This document shows, piece after piece, positions 12,521-50,248 of a DNA stretch of 50,248 nucleotides (positions within the stretch are counted from its first letter, which is position 1; each line of letters opens with the position of its first letter). The notes under the pieces were generated by a model. That model saw nothing but the letters and a program-made list of their open reading frames with translations, was not told the DNA's origin and did not search any database. The stretch comes from Patescibacteria group bacterium (lineage in GTDB: Bacteria > Patescibacteriota > Patescibacteriia > SBBC01 > CAIJZX01), in contig JBBTRH010000009.1 of NCBI GenBank assembly GCA_038065275.1, forward strand, positions 1 to 50,248, written 5' to 3'. The translations under genes and the position numbers were made by a program.

Positions 12521-12607
12521 GCGGCCGTGGCGGAACTGGTATACGCGCTAGCTTGAGGGGCTAGTGGTCGCAAGACCGTGGAGGTTCGAGTCCTCTCGGC
12601 CGCACCA
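12521..12607 (+). tRNA. tRNA-Leu (anticodon GAG)
   Basis: gcggccg tg gcg-gaactggtata-cgc g ctagc-ttGAGgg-gctag, long variable arm tggtcgcaagaccgt, ggagg-ttcgagt-cctct cggccgc ACCA. The leader caactggt pairs with accagttg (discriminator, CCA and trailer). Confidence 0.9.
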
Positions 12608-12962
12608 GTTGTTTAGAAAGTGCTAGCTTGCCTGCCCGCCGTAGCTCCGAGCGAAGGCGGAAGGGGCTAGTGGTCGCAAGACCGTGGAGGTTCGAGTCCT
12701 CTCGGCCGCACCAGTTGTTTAGAAAGTGCTAGCTTGCCTGCCCGCCAAAGCTCACCAGAGCGCTAGCGAAGGAGAGCGTCGGCGGGAGGGGCTAGTGGTC
12801 GCAAGACCGTGGAGGTTCAAATCCTCTCGTCCGCACCATTTGCGCATGTCATCGCATGACTGGTCGAGTCCTCTCGTCCGCACCAGCTGTTTAGAAAGCG
12901 CTAGCTTGCCTGTCCGCCGTAGCTCCGAGCGAAGGCGGAAGGGGCTAGTGGTCGCAAGACCT
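12608..12962 (+). repeat. Tandem array of about 3.5 tRNA-Leu 3' fragments, each with a hairpin inserted in the anticodon loop
   Basis: The unit is gttgtttagaaagtG-CTAGC-TTG-[cctgcccgcc...ggcgg(g)a]-(A)GGG-GCTAG-variable arm-T arm-acceptor-CCA. Unit ends fall at 12713, 12838 and 12885, and the last copy is truncated at about 12962. None of the copies has a D arm or 5' acceptor strand. Confidence 0.8.
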
Positions 12963-12984
12963 TGTCCCGCCACGGCGGGATCGT

Positions 12985-13016
12985 CCGCACAAACCGTGAG
13001 GTGCGGTTGTGTTTTT
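12985..13016 (+). terminator. Intrinsic terminator closing the tRNA-Leu region
   Basis: ccgcac-aaaccgtgag-gtgcgg followed by ttgtgttttt. Confidence 0.6.
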
Positions 13017-13321: not shown

Positions 13322-13397
13322 ACCCCGGCCTCATCCGCGACGCAGAGTCAGGATGGTTTGACGATTGATTATCCGGCTGAACCTTGCTACAATGCGC

Positions 13398-13446
13398 CCG
13401 CCTTCGTCCCGACCGCACAAGTGCGTCGGGACTACGGCGGGCAGGC
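13398..13446. repeat. 49-nt hairpin repeat CCGCCTTCGTCCCGACCGCACAAGTGCGTCGGGACTACGGCGGGCAGGC, copy 1
   Basis: By eye it is identical to 14114-14162 and 37719-37767. It is followed by a second hairpin, cgcccgccgaagacttgttcggcggcag. Confidence 0.85.
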
Positions 13447-13546
13447 CCGCCCGCCGAAGACTTGTTCGGCGGCAGGCAGGTGGTTAGCCCGCCCCGCTCG
13501 CTTCGCTACAAAGATCGAAACTCGACATGATAACTGTGTGAAACCT

Positions 13547-14037: not shown

Positions 14038-14215
14038 GGGCTGTTAGCCCCGATGTCCGGCGAAGCCGGAATCGGGATCCCGACCCGACATTCTGATGGA
14101 GGCGTCGGGACTCCCGCCTTCGTCCCGACCGCACAAGTGCGTCGGGACTACGGCGGGCAGGCTCGCCCGCCAAAGACTTGTTCGGCGGCAGACAGTTGGT
14201 AGAGCGTCCGGTTTG
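14038..14215 (+). pseudogene. tRNA-Ala(TGC) 5' half with two hairpin inserts in the D arm, broken after TTTG
   Basis: gggctgt ta gc[63-nt cccgat...gtcgggac, 14049-14111]tc[ccgcc...ggcaggc plus a second hairpin, 14114-~14193]agttggta gagc g tccgg tttg | tcccgatt... Confidence 0.7.
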
Positions 14216-14721: not shown

Positions 14722-15071
14722 TGGTGCTGGGTTTTTGCCGAAAACCTGCAACTCGCTACTTAACCCCGCACTATGCCTCGTTACACTCGGCAAATGCGGG
14801 GCAAGGAGGCAGTATCCGTCGCTCACCTGGTGACCCGAGGAGGACTCGAACCTCCAACCCGCTGCTTAAGAGGCAGCTACTCTACCAATTGAGCTATCGG
14901 GCCAGGTGAGCGACGGATTAGATGATCGTCAGCTGCTCCTTGCCCCGCACCGGAGTGGAACTACTGGTGCGGGGTACCAATTGAGTCCCGACGCCTCCAT
15001 CGCGATGTCGGGTCGGGATCCCGATTCCCGAAGTTCGCCGAGCGAATTCGGGACATCGGGGCTAGCGGGCC
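14722..15071 (-). pseudogene. Disrupted outer tRNA-Lys-like gene enclosing the intact tRNA-Lys
   Basis: Minus strand: ggcccgc ta gc[76-nt insert 14985-15060]tc aattggta [ccccgcacc...ggtgcggggcaag 14939-14974] gagc a gctg(a) ... intact tRNA cassette ... (g)cctc[cttgccccgc...gcgggg]ttaag tagcg agtt gcagg ... No proper T arm or 3' acceptor. Confidence 0.55.
14828..14903 (-). tRNA. tRNA-Lys (anticodon CTT)
   Basis: ggcccga ta gctc-aattggta-gagt a gctgc-ctCTTaa-gcagc gggtt ggagg-ttcgagt-cctcc tcgggtc ACCA. Bracketed by 12-bp complementary flanks (14816-14827 / 14905-14916). Confidence 0.9.
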
Positions 15072-16812: not shown

Positions 16813-16938
16813 GACTCTACCACTGCCAGCCCGCCGTAGCGTCAGTGACGGCGGGAGTCCCGACGCCTCCATTGGAATGTCGGGTCGGGATCCCGATTCC
16901 CGATCGCTAGGCGCATCGGGAATCGGGGCTACCCAGGC
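16813..16938 (-). pseudogene. tRNA-Phe 5' fragment with two D-arm hairpin inserts
   Basis: gcctggg ta gc[71-nt cccgatt...gtcgggac, 16857-16927]tc[ccgccgtcactgacgctacggcgggctggc]agtggta gagt... The insert positions match those in the Ala fragment at 14038. Confidence 0.65.
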
Positions 16939-45849: not shown

Positions 45850-46053
45850 ATGGAAATTTCTGCGTTGCTCATTTGGCATTACTACGACGAAGAAGGCAAG
45901 CTCGAGTCGCATTCGATCACGGACTTCACAGGGAACCGAGAGCAGCTTCGTAAGTGCGCCAACGCTGATGATATCAAGCCTGGCGGTGATCGTTACGACG
46001 CTCGGATTCCACGCAAGAGAAGCGTCTTGCAACAGATTGTTCTTCTTCCGTGA
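45850..46053 (+). CDS. Cassette ORF: hypothetical protein (67 aa)
   Basis: Strong RBS AAGGAGG 7 nt upstream. Confidence 0.45.
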   Translation: MEISALLIWHYYDEEGKLESHSITDFTGNREQLRKCANADDIKPGGDRYDARIPRKRSVLQQIVLLP

Positions 46054-46112
46054 CTCGAGCGGTTTCAAAAAGCGGACGTCTTATGGCGCCCGCTTTTCAT
46101 AACGACAAAATT

Positions 46113-46179
46113 TCCCCTAACGTTCGCGCGTCATACGCGGCGGAGCGAAGCGGAGTTGCGTATACGCGCTGTTAGTCGA
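46113..46179 (+). repeat. attC-like site F
   Basis: tcccctAAC gttcg cgcgt-C-atacgc ggcggagcgaagcggagtt gcgtat-acgcg ct GTTagtcga. Confidence 0.75.
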
Positions 46180-46218
46180 TGTATTTCTTTTCTTTTTCAG
46201 TGATACCCGTTGAACAGG

Positions 46219-46689
46219 CTACTTTGCCGTGACACAATTGATGCACTGCGGGTCGATAAACAAAAACGCACTGGAGCCGTCGTTCCGGAACGTTCCTTTG
46301 ATAGCAACAGTTTTCCCTGTTTGTGCCACCTGATAAACGTCTTGGACACCATTCATGTAAATCGTTCCGGAGGACGTTACAAACGCAGGTCCAATCGCAG
46401 GCATATATGGAACATTGCTGTTGGTCGCAGGTAGGGCAGTCATTGTTACAACGCCTTGGACAATCACAATCTTTCCATCCAACTCAACGCGTTGCAATAA
46501 AGCCTTTTCAGCGCTCAGCGTTCTCAATTGTGCTTTCTGGTCGTTTGTATTCGTCGATGCGGAATTCGATTGATTTGTGTGTTGAACAGCCGATTGTTTA
46601 GACCGCATGGGCCCAAACAATAACCCTGCCAAGGCCAGTAGAATCAAGAGCGAGAGGAAAGTAATAGTTCGTTTTGACATGATGCTCAT
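46219..46689 (-). CDS. Cassette ORF: hypothetical secreted protein (156 aa)
   Basis: Signal/TM-like ITFLSLLILLALAGLLFG. Confidence 0.55.
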   Translation of the reverse strand: MSIMSKRTITFLSLLILLALAGLLFGPMRSKQSAVQHTNQSNSASTNTNDQKAQLRTLSAEKALLQRVELDGKIVIVQGVVTMTALPATNSNVPYMPAIGPAFVTSSGTIYMNGVQDVYQVAQTGKTVAIKGTFRNDGSSAFLFIDPQCINCVTAK

Positions 46690-46791
46690 TTTGGTGGGTG
46701 GGGAGGAAATCGGTTTTTGGGTAGCGGATGATGCTGTGTTTACTCACATCAAGAGGTATTCGATGCAGGTTTGCCCAAGAAAAGAAATATT

Positions 46792-46852
46792 TCGACTAAC
46801 GTCCGGGTATCATACGCCCGTACTCATATGGCGTATATACCCTGTTATCGGA
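46792..46852 (+). repeat. attC-like site G
   Basis: tcgactAAC gtccg ggtat-C-atacgcc cgtactcatat ggcgtat-atacc ct GTTatcgga. It differs from site D by one loop substitution. Confidence 0.75.
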
Positions 46853-46957
46853 TGTATTGCTCTTTGGCGTTAGCCTTCTGGCGATTAGCCAATACGCAAA
46901 ATGCTTTTAGAAGAGGGGGGACAAACACGCGGTTTGTCCCCACAGTAGAGCGTAGTT

Positions 46958-47122
46958 CTAGTCGTCGCCGAAAGGACTGGTGTCAGCTTCCCGGAAACAC
47001 GGTTCGCAGTAAAGTCCATCGGGACCAAACTGTGGCTTTCCGCGATCGCAGACCTGAGTATAGTCTGTACTTCCACACTCAACACATCGCCCGTCTCTCG
47101 TCCGGACTTCTTGCGTACCCAT
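46958..47122 (-). CDS. Cassette ORF: zinc-ribbon-like small protein (54 aa)
   Basis: Hand-found frame MGTQEVRTRDGRCVECGSTDYTQVCDRGKPQFGPDGLYCEPCFREADTSPFGDD, preceded by GGAGG. It has CxxC...CxxC. I prefer it over the listed 80-aa ORF 46885..47127. Confidence 0.5.
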   Translation of the reverse strand: MGTQEVRTRDGRCVECGSTDYTQVCDRGKPQFGPDGLYCEPCFREADTSPFGDD

Positions 47123-47184
47123 GGCACACCTCCGTTTTGATTAGTTTACGCTCTTCTAAAAGCATTTTGTAAAAGAGCAATATT

Positions 47185-47361
47185 TCCGATAACGTTCGCG
47201 CGTAGAGGAAGTTGGCTGACCGCCCTGTGGTACACTTGCTTACCACGGGGCGGACAGCCGATTTGTGGTAAGCCGATAGGCTCAAACACATCCTTCTAGT
47301 AGATGTATATTACCAGTAATGTTGCTTAATCGAAAGACCTCCTCTACGCGCTGTTGTACGA
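47185..47361 (+). repeat. attC-like site H (long, 177 nt)
   Basis: tccgatAAC gttcg cgcgtagagga ...interior homologous to E... tcctctacgcg ct GTTgtacga. Confidence 0.7.
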
Positions 47362-47460
47362 TTTGATGCTTTGCCGTGTAATTGACAAAAAGTTACTTCT
47401 TAAGTAAGCTGGGGCGCTCGTTCCTGTAGAGATCAAAGGCACAAACCTGAGGAGGATGTC

Positions 47461-47955
47461 GTGAGAAGGAAGCTAGTTGTTGGTGTCATGGGGCCTGGCC
47501 GCGTGGCAACGGATAGGCAGATCGATGTGGCCTACAAGGTAGGCCGAATGATCGCAGAAGCTGGTTGTAATCTGCTGAATGGTGGAGTTGCTCACGGTGT
47601 CATGGACGCGTCTGCCAGAGGAGCTGCTGAAATAGGAGGCGTCGAGATCATCGGCGTGACTCCGCATAAGCAGCCGTCTGAAACCCACCCCGTTTCGGAG
47701 CACGTGACTATCCTGATCGAGACGACGTTCGGTGAAGGTCGCAACCTGATCAATGCCAGGTCCAGCGATCTGGTCATCGCCATCGGAATGTGTCCGGGGA
47801 CTGCCAGCGAAGTCTGCTTCGCGATCAAGGCAGGGAAGCCCATCTTCCTAATGGATTGTCCCTCGGAAGCTCACGACTTCTTTCGTGCTCTTGGTGGCAA
47901 TGTGCAGATCGGAATCATAGAACACATCCGGTCGATGCTCATGGAACGTGCCTAA
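47461..47955 (+). CDS. Cassette ORF: TIGR00725/LOG-like (SLOG superfamily) Rossmann protein (164 aa)
   Basis: (V)RRKLVVGVMGPG...LLNGGVAHGVMDASARGA...VIAIGMCPGTASEV. GTG start after GAGGAGG, with an upstream TTGACA-17-TAAGCT. Confidence 0.65.
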   Translation: MRRKLVVGVMGPGRVATDRQIDVAYKVGRMIAEAGCNLLNGGVAHGVMDASARGAAEIGGVEIIGVTPHKQPSETHPVSEHVTILIETTFGEGRNLINARSSDLVIAIGMCPGTASEVCFAIKAGKPIFLMDCPSEAHDFFRALGGNVQIGIIEHIRSMLMERA

Positions 47956-48025
47956 TGCTCGTTAGAACGAGAAGCCCCAGCCGTCTTCCAGGCCGCGGGC
48001 TTCTTTCTTTTATTAAAGCATCATT

Positions 48026-48084
48026 TCGTACAACGTCCGCGACTATACGAAGTACTTATATTTCGAATAGTCGCTGTTGTACGC
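48026..48084 (+). repeat. attC-like site I
   Basis: tcgtacAAC gtccg cgact atacgaagtacttatatttcgaat agtcg ct GTTgtacgc. Confidence 0.75.
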
Positions 48085-48092
48085 TGTTTCAC

Positions 48093-48557
48093 TCATTGCC
48101 AACCGTGTTCACTGTAAAAGGTTTTGTTTTTAATACCTTCGAGAGCCTGTCTGATGTATGGAATGATGTTGTCAGGCAGACTATCAAGATCAAACCATGA
48201 TAAATCATCACATTTATCTGGTTCTTTAATTTGAGGCTCACCTTGCCATTGTCGAGCAATAAAAAAGACATCAACTCGGTGATTATTTTCAGAATCGCGC
48301 GAATCCCTTTGCATGACATGAGCGACTTCCAAATCACCGGGCTTTAATATTATTCCCGCCTCTTCCATAGCTTCTCGGACGATGCATGACGTAAAAGTCT
48401 CACCTTCATTTACATGGCCGGCGACCATACTGTACTTACCATCTTCGTATCCTGTGTTGAAACGCCGGAGTAGAAGCACCTTGCCATCCTTCACTAATGT
48501 GAGATATGAAGCGGGAATGAGTTGATGTCTTTTTTTCTTTGCGTGATTACTAGTCAT
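48093..48557 (-). CDS. Cassette ORF: NUDIX hydrolase (154 aa)
   Basis: Nudix box AGHVNEGETFTSCIVREAMEEAGI. Confidence 0.85.
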   Translation of the reverse strand: MTSNHAKKKRHQLIPASYLTLVKDGKVLLLRRFNTGYEDGKYSMVAGHVNEGETFTSCIVREAMEEAGIILKPGDLEVAHVMQRDSRDSENNHRVDVFFIARQWQGEPQIKEPDKCDDLSWFDLDSLPDNIIPYIRQALEGIKNKTFYSEHGWQ

Positions 48558-48696
48558 GTTTGATTACTTGAGGCAATGAGTGAAATGGCGTACAACGTTT
48601 CGGGCTAGCCGAAGTTGCGTAGTCCGCGTGGCGGTACAATTTTACCACCGCCTAAGCGGACAAGCAATTTGGGTGAGCGAGTTATTTCTCTTTGTT

Positions 48697-48999
48697 TTAT
48701 GTGGCAAGTTCTAAGATTTTGACTTTGTTTTTCAAAACGCTTGACAGTTCTTCTTCCTGTACCGCCAAGTCAAAGCGGGACTGCAAGTTAAGCCAAAACT
48801 GCGGTGAAGTTCGAAAATACTTCCCTAAGCGAAGAGCGGTATCGGCACTAATCGCCCGCTCTCCATGGATAATCTCATTGATCCGGCGCGGGGCAACATC
48901 AACATCTTTTGCCAACCGGTATTGGCTGATGGCGAAAGGCTCCAAAAACTCTTCCATGAGTATCTCGCCCGGATGAATTGGTTGCATTTTTTTGGTCAT
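48697..48999 (-). CDS. higA: HigA-type antitoxin (HTH, Xre family)
   Basis: MQPIHPGEILMEEFLEPFAISQYRLAKDVDVAPRRINEIIHGERAISADTALRLGKYF is a classic HigA/VapI sequence. Confidence 0.88.
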   Translation of the reverse strand: MTKKMQPIHPGEILMEEFLEPFAISQYRLAKDVDVAPRRINEIIHGERAISADTALRLGKYFRTSPQFWLNLQSRFDLAVQEEELSSVLKNKVKILELAT

Positions 49000-49019
49000 A
49001 GTAATGTAGGTTATTCTCG

Positions 49020-49304
49020 TTAATGATGATAATCGACGATTTCTACTTCGTAAGCGTCACCCTGACGCCAGTTGAAACAAATTCTCCACTGGTCATTGAT
49101 GCGAATACTGTGTTGTCCGCGCCGGTTGCCCTTGAGTTTCTCCAGGCGATTCGCCCGGGGTACTCGTAAGTCTTGAATATTCAGGGCCGCATCGATCATC
49201 CAGAGTTTTCGCAAGGCAGTTCGTTGGATATCTGGAGGCAGTTTTGGCGAATATTCCCGGTTAAATATTCCAGCCGCTTCCTTTGATTTAAAGCTCTTTA
49301 TCAT
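49020..49304 (-). CDS. higB: HigB-type toxin (RelE/ParE superfamily, plasmid maintenance system killer)
   Basis: MIKSFKSKEAAGIFNREYSPKLPPDIQRTALRKLWMIDAA...LKGNRRGQHSIRINDQWRICF. The toxin lies upstream of the antitoxin, as in higBA. Confidence 0.88.
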   Translation of the reverse strand: MIKSFKSKEAAGIFNREYSPKLPPDIQRTALRKLWMIDAALNIQDLRVPRANRLEKLKGNRRGQHSIRINDQWRICFNWRQGDAYEVEIVDYHH

Positions 49305-49530
49305 GCGATAGGGGTATAATAACGTATTACAATAATACTGTCAAGCGTTAACAGTAGCAAGAAATAACTCGCTCACCGGTTAGCCCGTGTTAGCTGATGT
49401 ATTCCTTTTCTTTTCTTCTCTTGCTAAGAGAAGGCGGGGGGAAAAATCTTTCAAATTTTTCTTTGATCGGTCTCTCTACAATAATGAAGCGGGGTCCGAC
49501 CGATTGGCCGAACCCCATCACGATCCCCAT

Positions 49531-50004
49531 TCATTTCCAGGTACCAGCCATTCTGAAGAAGCTCAACTGTTCGTGAATGCGAGGTGCAATCTCACCTACA
49601 ACCCTCAGGAATTCAGGCAGTGCGTCCCGGACTGCCTTCGTGTACCAGGCAGGAAGGGTCAGGCGATACCCATCATAGGGGCCAGTGAATTTCCAAATGG
49701 TATGGCTTCCGGGTGTGATCAGTGTTCCAACCGTTATGACCCACATGCCCTCGACGTTATCGACATCGAGAGTACCAGACACCCCCGTTTCCAGGGGCTG
49801 ATCTCCTGGCAGGTGCGCAAGTCCCGTGTAAATACCATGTAGCGGGACTTGGAATACTCTGCTCTGCCTCTCCTTTACACGGAGCTTCCTCAGGAAAGGC
49901 ATCACGATCCCGAAAATCGCCTCAACCTCCCTCCGGTAACGATCGACATTCCCCGATCCACGGATGATTTGCTGGGTATCTTCTGGCGTGCAGTGTTCTT
50001 TCAC
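49531..50004 (-). CDS. Cassette ORF: hypothetical protein (157 aa)
   Basis: Long ORF with no motif recognised. Confidence 0.5.
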   Translation of the reverse strand: MKEHCTPEDTQQIIRGSGNVDRYRREVEAIFGIVMPFLRKLRVKERQSRVFQVPLHGIYTGLAHLPGDQPLETGVSGTLDVDNVEGMWVITVGTLITPGSHTIWKFTGPYDGYRLTLPAWYTKAVRDALPEFLRVVGEIAPRIHEQLSFFRMAGTWK

Positions 50005-50187
50005 AACTTCCTCCTGGTCCTGTCTCCAGGACGCCTCTCTCGAGTTGCGGAGTGTACATCAGCCGCTTTGGCCACACTTGGTCTACCACTAATAGATACT
50101 TGTTGTCAACATACCTTGGCTAAGAAAGAAATTTGAAGGATCTTTTACCCCCCTCGGGCAGTAGCCCGGAAAAAGAAAAGGAATATG

Positions 50188-50248
50188 TCAGCTAACTCGT
50201 TATTATGCGAACTGGGGCGGGTTGGCACCCTTATTATTGCATATTTTG
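50188..50248 (+). repeat. attC-like site K (left arm only; cut by window edge)
   Basis: tcagctAAC tcgtt... Its left 9-mer is the exact reverse complement of the GTTagctga that opens this cassette at 49389. Confidence 0.55.

Follow-up and report, generated by a model that had tools for sequence, protein, structure and literature searches.

Sites of the attC type in integrons are usually taken to be short (about 55-150 nt) and to lie beside genes. Group IIC-attC introns and IS1111-attC insertion sequences interrupt such sites, encode a reverse transcriptase or a transposase, and have characteristic ends. Integron-finding software caps the length of attC and requires the IntI-specific domain of the integrase, so that arrays such as the one described here would be missed or mis-segmented. 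The variable terminal structure (VTS) of a canonical attC can be branched and its deletion changes recombination less than 2.5-fold, and extrahelical bases on the R''-L'' arm mark the bottom strand (PMC2727003). Toxin-antitoxin (TA) cassettes of Vibrio kill cells upon too frequent excision (PMC13108822). Here, we report a site, termed site J, on a contig of a Patescibacteria group bacterium (JBBTRH010000009.1; the window, which is the whole contig of 50,248 nt), in which the complementary halves of an attC enclose a complete higBA TA module. With a probability of roughly 0.55, we read site J as a single bipartite attC of an integron-like Patescibacteria array, the variable terminal branch of which carries cargo. 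The searchable full-text literature yielded no description of genes inside an attC and no paper on integrons of the candidate phyla radiation (CPR) or Patescibacteria, and the gene-inside-site layout is apparently an undescribed integron variant that is lineage-wide in groundwater Patescibacteria.

Results

Site J consists of two parts, at 48588-48670 and 49378-49397, separated by a 707-nt unit (48671-49377) that holds higB, higA and a promoter-like site. The folded attC of this lineage is a three-way junction of an R/A helix, a P2 hairpin and a B hairpin; the first comprises a cassette-specific R box, a 3-nt bulge and a conserved 10-bp A stem, and the last GG, a TTC/TCA internal loop, a stem and a loop. 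The unit in J is bounded by a perfect 18-bp inverted repeat, GGTGAGCGAGTTATTTCT at 48672-48689 and AGAAATAACTCGCTCACC at 49360-49377, with 670 nt between its arms; it was matched 0 times in dinucleotide shuffles of the window. Together with the preceding G, the first copy forms one arm of the B helix (48671-48689), of which the first 8 nt are conserved in the family and the remainder is specific to higBA, and the second copy forms the other arm. Outside the unit, CGGGCTAGCC (+ strand, 48601-48610) pairs with GGTTAGCCCG (49378-49387) to form the A helix, the family-conserved inner stem, with one G.T pair on the + strand. The P2 hairpin (48611-48670), the variable branch of the junction, of which a few types are shared among sites, formed as a local hairpin in every fold. 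Between the A helix and the R box lies a GTTT spacer (48597-48600), the TTT of which forms the 3-nt bulge that is retained at all sites in the array (TTC, TCC or TTT on the + strand at the 12 other sites); G48597 can pair with T49388 on the + strand only. The outermost 9-mers of J belong to neighbouring cassettes, as they do at the 12 other sites. The first, GCGTACAAC at 48588-48596, is the R' half of the R box (GTTGTACGC on the top, minus strand), constitutes the start of the downstream Nudix154 cassette and is complementary to GTTGTACGC at 48077-48085 in the next site. The second, GTTAGCTGA at 49389-49397, is the R'' half of the ORF157 cassette (TCAGCTAAC on the top strand) and is complementary to TCAGCTAAC at 50188-50196 in attI.

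A preliminary description of the locus had placed higBA between the complementary halves of J, and pairing, folds and matches of HigB and HigA to protein profiles confirm this; the second of its two complementary blocks is in fact part of the perfect 18-bp repeat, which includes GTTatttct/agaaatAAC. When the halves were joined, as it had proposed, they folded into a stable hairpin (dG -32.9, z -5.0). Deletion in silico of the whole 707-nt unit with its 18-bp arms left J as a continuous 103-nt hairpin (dG -28.3, z -5.9), and deletion of the unit with the arms retained gave a three-way junction (dG -43.6, z -8.7). On their own, the halves do not fold into a site, and the right one reaches z of about -1. 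The insert does lack a hairpin of its own, as had been claimed: no attC of the cassette type was found in the unit, nor next to its boundary inside 48690-49359. A reading of the halves as two small attC sites (AAC...GTT at 48594-48683 and 49366-49391) was rejected, the L''/L' arms being unpaired and the folds weak.

Site J belongs to an integron-like cassette array that extends from 40640 to 50248 and is read on the minus strand, so that what had been called the left half of J is the 3' part of the site. Thirteen imperfect palindromes of the form TCnnnnAAC...GTTnnnnGA (+ strand) occur between 40640 and the window end; hairpin folding and agreement with the attC pattern RYYYAAC...GTTRRRY were found at 13/13 array sites. 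In every cassette, the 9 nt that follow GTT and the 9 nt that precede the next AAC are reverse complements of each other, perfectly in 11 of 12 and with a single mismatch in the twelfth, and this is a signature of integron cassettes. An open reading frame (ORF) lies on the minus strand in 10/13 cassettes. A public contig (L002) overlaps 49385-50248 with 0 differences and continues into the gene of a 273-aa tyrosine recombinase (L002:122-943), which is divergent from ORF157 at a distance of about 300 nt, just beyond window position 50248. The site at 50188 (formerly "site K") is therefore attI, with an attI-like junction at 50188-50248, and ORF157 (49531-50004, minus strand) is the outer gene of the first cassette with site J as its attC. 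A tyrosine recombinase divergent from the cassettes and an attI junction are thus both present, as in integrons. No Pfam or NCBIfam match was found for ORF157. The + strand had at one stage been taken as the top strand, judged from the arm with the extra bases, a view overturned by the position of the recombinase and the directions of the ORFs.

The recombinase matches NF040815 (XerA / integron integrase) with 224.5 bits, above the cut-off of 220, and TIGR02249 (integron integrase) with 216 bits, below the cut-off of 265 and in two pieces. Against VchIntIA (2A3V), residues 12-181 align to 10-182 and residues 202-273 to 246-317, which places a gap of about 43 missing residues at the position of the IntI-specific insertion. 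The protein accordingly lacks the IntI-specific additional domain; it retains the C-terminal ...SPL, is IntI-like at both ends and scores equally well against archaeal XerA. Homologues with 47-73% identity lie divergent beside arrays of J-type sites at L021, L028, L031, L036 and L057, five independent loci that had originally been found by DNA pattern alone. Relatives with 56-60% identity were found in metagenome-assembled genomes (MAGs) of Nomurabacteria and Peribacteria, in a scan of genome contigs whose five loci end at the arrays and are informative for taxonomy only.

The split architecture recurs with other genes. When metagenome contigs were scanned for the conserved arm ACTTCGGYTAGNNCGAAACGTT, 43 loci emerged, with 31 distinct J-type split sites that enclose 26 unrelated gene families; this recurrence shows that the layout is not a one-off insertion. 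On the top strand of the array, the 5' frame reads TCnnnnAAC-A-CGGGCTAGCC-GGT(G/T)(A/C)GCG, followed by a specific part and the gene or genes, and the 3' frame reads, after the specific counterpart, CGCTCACC-C-AAATT-P2-AACTTC-GGCTAGCCCG-AAA-CGTTnnnnGA. The A-helix arm is nearly invariant in these sites, a set that was itself found by scanning for that arm. All inner genes are co-oriented with the array and, except for the second genes of pairs and two other sites, begin 18-70 nt past the start of the B arm. Immediately inward of the conserved 8 nt, stretches of 24 nt show gene-specific complementarity, with a mean duplex dG of -11.2 for cognate flanks vs -5.3 +/- 2.0 for non-cognate pairs, and compensatory changes at conserved positions were seen in L037 (GGAGAGCG/CGCTCTC) and L041. 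The inner boundary of the 31 sites is usually GCG-AGCTAAAT.../...ATTTAGCT-CGC. GAGTTAT/ATAACTC is confined to higBA, and GTT/AAC is absent from the other 25 inner-gene families. The idea that a cassette had entered a secondary GTT/AAC site in the loop of another site consequently fails: the motif occurs only with higBA, the unit has no attC of its own, and the same flanks surround unrelated DNA without AAC/GTT ends. HigB homologues of 86-92% identity occur in the same geometry behind different upstream genes. No empty site J was found among the 43 loci, every J-type frame with enough upstream sequence holding a gene of at least 238 nt. The search for an uninterrupted J and for higBA elsewhere that had been suggested was thus successful in its second part only, with higBA in six contexts, and it revealed uninterrupted relatives of J. 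In L029 and L005:5769-6368, another gene family occupies a J-type loop; the only ORF, of 72 aa, leaves space in the 570-nt loop for a further small gene, and two-gene cargo may thus not be limited to higBA.

One uninterrupted relative lies in the window itself. The site at 40650-40752 folds as a three-way-junction attC with an empty B hairpin (GG TTC GGCAC tcggctc GTGCC TCA CC), and its order, AAC-A-stem-GG-TTC-stem-loop-stem-TCA-CC-P2-stem'-RAA-CGTT, is repeated in L025, L028, L048 and L058. The loop of the B hairpin measures 4-26 nt in uninterrupted sites, and in split sites the gene occupies that very loop. Over the collected loci the site spans are bimodal, with 42 sites at 51-216 nt and about 54 at 338-1417 nt, in a sample that is enriched for J-type sites and in which a few long spans may be mis-pairings of similar neighbouring sites. 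Several stem types other than that of J are found among the long sites. The nesting that had been called unusual is so in comparison with canonical integrons and is not so within the lineage (about 54 split vs 42 uninterrupted sites, in this split-biased sample). At L028, 5/7 attC sites following attI hold an inner ORF.

Several further structures deserve mention. "Empty" B hairpins at L048:915 and L058:3479 and 4542 have leader-like loops of 20-26 nt without a gene, one with TAAGGAG, and may be scars of lost inner genes. Two 177-nt attC sites in the window (45596-45772 and 47185-47361; 86% identical) have a multi-branched apex, and one of their branch loops holds GGTGAGCGAG, which resembles the B arm of J. 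A conserved module in L028 (3300-3470 and 6590-6750) consists of an "empty" cassette (GTTATGCCGC, 23 nt, GCGGCATAAC) and then a site with two tandem R''-A arms that share one A'-R' arm.

The strand opposite the ORFs folds better in 32/42 uninterrupted sites (p = 2e-4). This ORF-complementary strand also carries most G.T pairs, and the base of B forms a tandem G.A pair on it. These three observations support the view that the active form is a folded bottom strand, as it is in known integrons. Unpaired bases are found on the R'-L' arm, distal to the ORF stop, in the 12 uninterrupted sites at 40650-48085, and consist of the 3-nt bulge beside the R box plus a single extra G in five sites. The canonical location of extrahelical bases, the R''-L'' arm, is thus not the one used, and still the antisense strand folds better. 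The unpaired bases on the opposite arm may go with the missing domain of the integrase.

Over the six contexts of higBA, identity is 89-100% in the 28-nt 5' half-site and in the last 24 nt, vs 79-87% in the enclosed DNA. The suggestion that the TA module uses the surrounding palindrome as its own site gains support from this, and the 31 split sites make it a general one. The neighbours vary around identical units. The only copy of such a unit outside an array, L065, consists of a solo NUDIX gene, a split attC with three mismatches in the B stem, and higBA, and is preceded by a GTT at the 3' terminus of a VIT1 gene. It is surrounded by housekeeping genes, with only GTTAGTCGAAAT on its left side and all of the 3' half-site on its right, as expected of a whole cassette that entered a secondary site. 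L065 shows a split-site unit that moved as one piece.

NUDIX hydrolase cassettes recur in these arrays, in the window at 45152-45541 and 48093-48557 and as outer partners of higBA in L005 and L065; the proteins are only distantly related to one another. In addition, the ORF157 cassette and the cassette at 43482-44129 have inverted-repeat ends of about 70 nt in common around unrelated ORFs (43482-43550 / 44059-44129 and 49389-49460 / 50126-50196). This shell is also found in L004 upstream of higBA, and the three cassettes that share it carry unrelated ORFs of 114, 157 and 201 aa; assemblies break there. It would extend the R-box helix.

The cargo of J is a type II TA module with the toxin gene first and a 20-nt gap between two full-length genes. 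The toxin gene higB (49020-49304, minus strand) encodes a RelE-like protein of 94 aa that matches PF05015 with 73 bits (cut-off 27) over positions 2-91 of 91. The antitoxin gene higA (48697-48999, minus strand) encodes a helix-turn-helix protein of 100 aa that matches TIGR02607 with 109 bits (cut-off 47.7) over positions 1-79 of 81, and also PF01381. Homologues of HigB number thousands, the few named ones being mostly from Patescibacteria. Exact protein matches for HigB and HigA came from the same population only (L001, 99.9% identical to the window) and so provide no independent evidence. A promoter-like site, TTGACA-17-TATTAT (49316-49344, minus strand; 11/12 consensus positions), lies inside the loop and is conserved in homologous higBA units, and the palindrome GTATTA..TAATAC that overlaps it could be an operator. 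A perfect 13-nt inverted repeat (48736-48748 / 49337-49349), of which few or none are expected by chance, links the -35 region of higBA (AACGCTTGACAGT) with the 3' end of higA and could be a second operator or a remnant. The concentric inverted repeats in higBA were also considered as one giant palindrome, an idea that was discarded as only the 13-mer stands out and the others are at chance level. In a Kerfeldbacteria MAG (L066, 1870-1956 and 2640-2760), a higBA of 86% identity lacks the attC arms and lies between direct repeats of about 85 nt that are duplicates of the end of the Mur ligase gene upstream, which is a different mode of insertion.

Elsewhere in the window, 11 tRNA genes lie within 4.6-38 kb. 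At 12521-12995, a tRNA-Leu(gag) gene precedes three additional copies of its 3' half, spaced 106-153 nt, which looks like repeated integration events at the tRNA. An 88-nt direct repeat (13397-13484, 14113-14200 and 37718-37805) and an inverted repeat of 46-54 nt with 93-94% complementarity (14068-14121 / 14983-15028 / 16847-16900) are also located among tRNA genes.

Discussion

We propose that the branches B and P2 are together the counterpart of the variable terminal structure in a canonical attC, which tolerates any length. In many sites the loop of the B hairpin accommodates one or two complete genes and, in J, higB, higA and their putative promoter. In single-stranded DNA the 18-bp B stem would join the distant A arms, and the integrase could then recombine at the outer R box; the 670 nt between the arms may lower the frequency of folding. 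J is probably still functional as an attC. ORF157, J and higBA would be expected to move as one cassette, and higBA would not be excisable alone at R boxes because neither half-site folds by itself. From this geometry we infer a possible killing effect: an excision ending at J would remove the antitoxin gene, and one starting at J would keep it. By analogy with the TA cassettes of Vibrio, the first cassette (ORF157) and the attI-proximal end of the array could thereby become addictive. A role of TA cassettes in stabilizing arrays is a reasonable assumption on the same analogy (PMC13108822).

A number of observations weigh against the bipartite attC as a full account. The higBA units have five unrelated outer partners (ORF157, ORF201, two distant NUDIX proteins and ORF87), which rules out co-inheritance of outer and inner genes, and are accompanied by three types of P2. 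The units of L038 and L054 are 95.5% identical inside and different on both sides. Outer gene, inner gene and P2 thus reassort, and recombination of whole cassettes at R' only is insufficient to explain it. Unrelated inner genes have an identical 25-nt B "shell" in common. Reassortment and shared shells together indicate that loop contents are exchanged by some process, for which homologous exchange in conserved frames, recombination of both strands and a second site-specific exchange point are candidates, none of them preferred here. Moreover, a stem with 670 nt between its arms has to compete with local folding and with SSB, the protein that binds single-stranded DNA, and for a recombinase without the IntI-specific domain a single-strand mechanism is assumed from other integrons. 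In contigs of four public runs of the same community, no joint skipping 48671-49377 and no circular junction were found, a weak evidence of absence since these are k-mer contigs.

If the B helix itself were such a second exchange point, the inner genes would be mobile modules bounded by GGTKMGC / GCTCACC, in the way that GTT / AAC delimit the outer cassettes, forming with the outer genes two interleaved series, and loading of the loop could make new cassettes in this lineage. The two compartments are indeed symmetrical, each with a conserved base and gene-specific complementary ends. The near-invariant frame around 26 unrelated families, the identical 25-nt shell around unrelated genes and the reassortment of higBA against outer gene and P2 would all follow, and the conserved 2x2 internal loop at the base of B, which becomes a tandem G.A pair on the strand that folds better, resembles a recognition feature. 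We nevertheless consider such an exchange unlikely. A single strand exchange of the attC x attC type should leave a second hairpin beside the gene, and none was seen; circular or empty-frame junctions were found neither among the loci of the metagenome scan nor in the public contigs. Conserved and specific sequence are less sharply delimited here than at the R box, and L065 moved as a whole two-gene unit. A related proposal, tentative and itself rather doubtful, is that the attC serves as a loading bay, its B hairpin capturing or swapping genes under an Xer-like integrase without the IntI domain, with modules bounded by R boxes and B boxes. If true, a gene would become mobile once it had landed in the loop, which would provide a concrete route for the genesis of cassettes, a long-standing question.

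Strict alternation of site orientation, as in the C and D dif modules (PMC13141974), brings to mind a system with double-stranded substrates, comparable to the Xer-dependent dif modules on Acinetobacter plasmids. The half-sites R''-A-B and B'-P2-A'-R' would then be inverted copies of one site of about 28 bp, and each outer or inner gene a module between inverted sites, swapped by double exchange. Reassortment of both compartments would be explained, TA pairs are typical dif modules, and the recombinase, without the IntI insertion, is as near to archaeal XerA as to IntI. A near-palindrome, CACGGGCTAGCCGGTG, is even present in the 5' half-site of J, but it was not found in the other stem types. 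The half-sites differ by 3 nt in spacing at every site (AAC-A-CGGG vs CCCG-AAAC-GTT), one strand folds consistently better, and the stems covary without keeping their sequence; spacing asymmetry, strand bias, covariation and the lack of a shared palindrome indicate folded single strands instead. The 28-bp organization of Xer/dif sites, two inverted 11-bp arms with a 6-bp spacer, is not seen, and the P2 hairpin is on one side only. Such a system is therefore improbable here.

Could J simply have been split and inactivated once, by a cassette at a secondary GTT or by a small inverted-repeat element, leaving higBA stuck? The unit is clean, with 707 nt between perfect 18-bp repeats and GTT/AAC at its inner edges, and its removal restores J. 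Against this stand the recurrence of the architecture with 26 gene families and in six contexts of higBA, a conservation of the arms that exceeds the coding rate, and GTT/AAC ends that are not general. The edges of the insert have neither a target-site duplication nor a longer inverted repeat, the flanks TTTG / GGTT forming no direct repeat, and no internal attC is present. A transposable element with terminal inverted repeats was likewise rejected, as higB and higA are the only ORFs and no transposase or target-site duplication was found; also, the first 8 nt of the 18-bp repeat belong to the site family and not to the cargo. The metagenome scan has already largely refuted a one-off insertion, which we hold to be very improbable. 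Least probable is that the long-range stems act in RNA, each gene of the polycistronic array transcript being bracketed by a 14-25 bp duplex for processing or stabilization (e.g. by RNase III) with the DNA geometry as a by-product. Stems do bracket outer as well as inner genes, and the 5' arm extends over the region of translation start, but the better-folding strand is antisense, and on the sense strand the base of B has T.C/C.T as its internal loop.

Read as a bipartite attC, site J implies that three rules have apparently been relaxed jointly in a major uncultured lineage: the site encloses genes, its unpaired bases are on the opposite arm, and the integrase lacks the domain that reads them. 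An addiction module would be physically locked to a recombination site and to the cassette of another gene, next to attI. With 26 unrelated families in a single conserved hairpin frame, such sites could reveal how genes and attC come to be associated.

The closest known counterparts are attC sites with a large branched variable terminal structure, such as those of the V. cholerae repeats (VCR; Bouvier et al. 2009, PMC2727003). The sites of this lineage resemble them in the imperfect palindrome of ...AAC / GTT..., the R-box halves of neighbouring cassettes, the bulged stem, the better-folding bottom strand, the dispensable branched apex, and the divergent tyrosine recombinase with attI (PMC2727003). 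They differ in that the apex, at 240-1000 nt, contains whole genes and extends the site to at most about 1.4 kb, compared with about 55-150 nt for known sites; in the extra bases on the R'-L' arm; in an inner stem of conserved sequence; and in a recombinase without the IntI-specific domain. With group IIC-attC introns and IS1111-attC elements, J shares a discrete piece of DNA within an attC hairpin; unlike them, it encodes nothing but higBA in its unit, and the stem around the unit belongs to the site family itself. Acinetobacter pdif modules also have genes, often TA pairs, between alternating inverted sites, with reassortment and a Xer-like recombinase (PMC13141974). The pdif sites, however, are double-stranded 28-bp XerC/D sites without hairpin asymmetry (PMC13141974), whereas the half-sites of the J family differ in spacing, form strand-biased hairpins, and are served by a dedicated recombinase and attI. 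The promoter-bearing TA cassettes of sedentary integrons (Richard et al. 2024, PMC13108822) are similar in presenting a type II TA module with a promoter-like site within an array, and higBA, if the analogy holds, probably penalizes the loss of cassettes as they do. In Vibrio the TA module is an ordinary cassette followed by its own attC (PMC13108822); in this Patescibacteria array it resides within the first-position attC of another gene.

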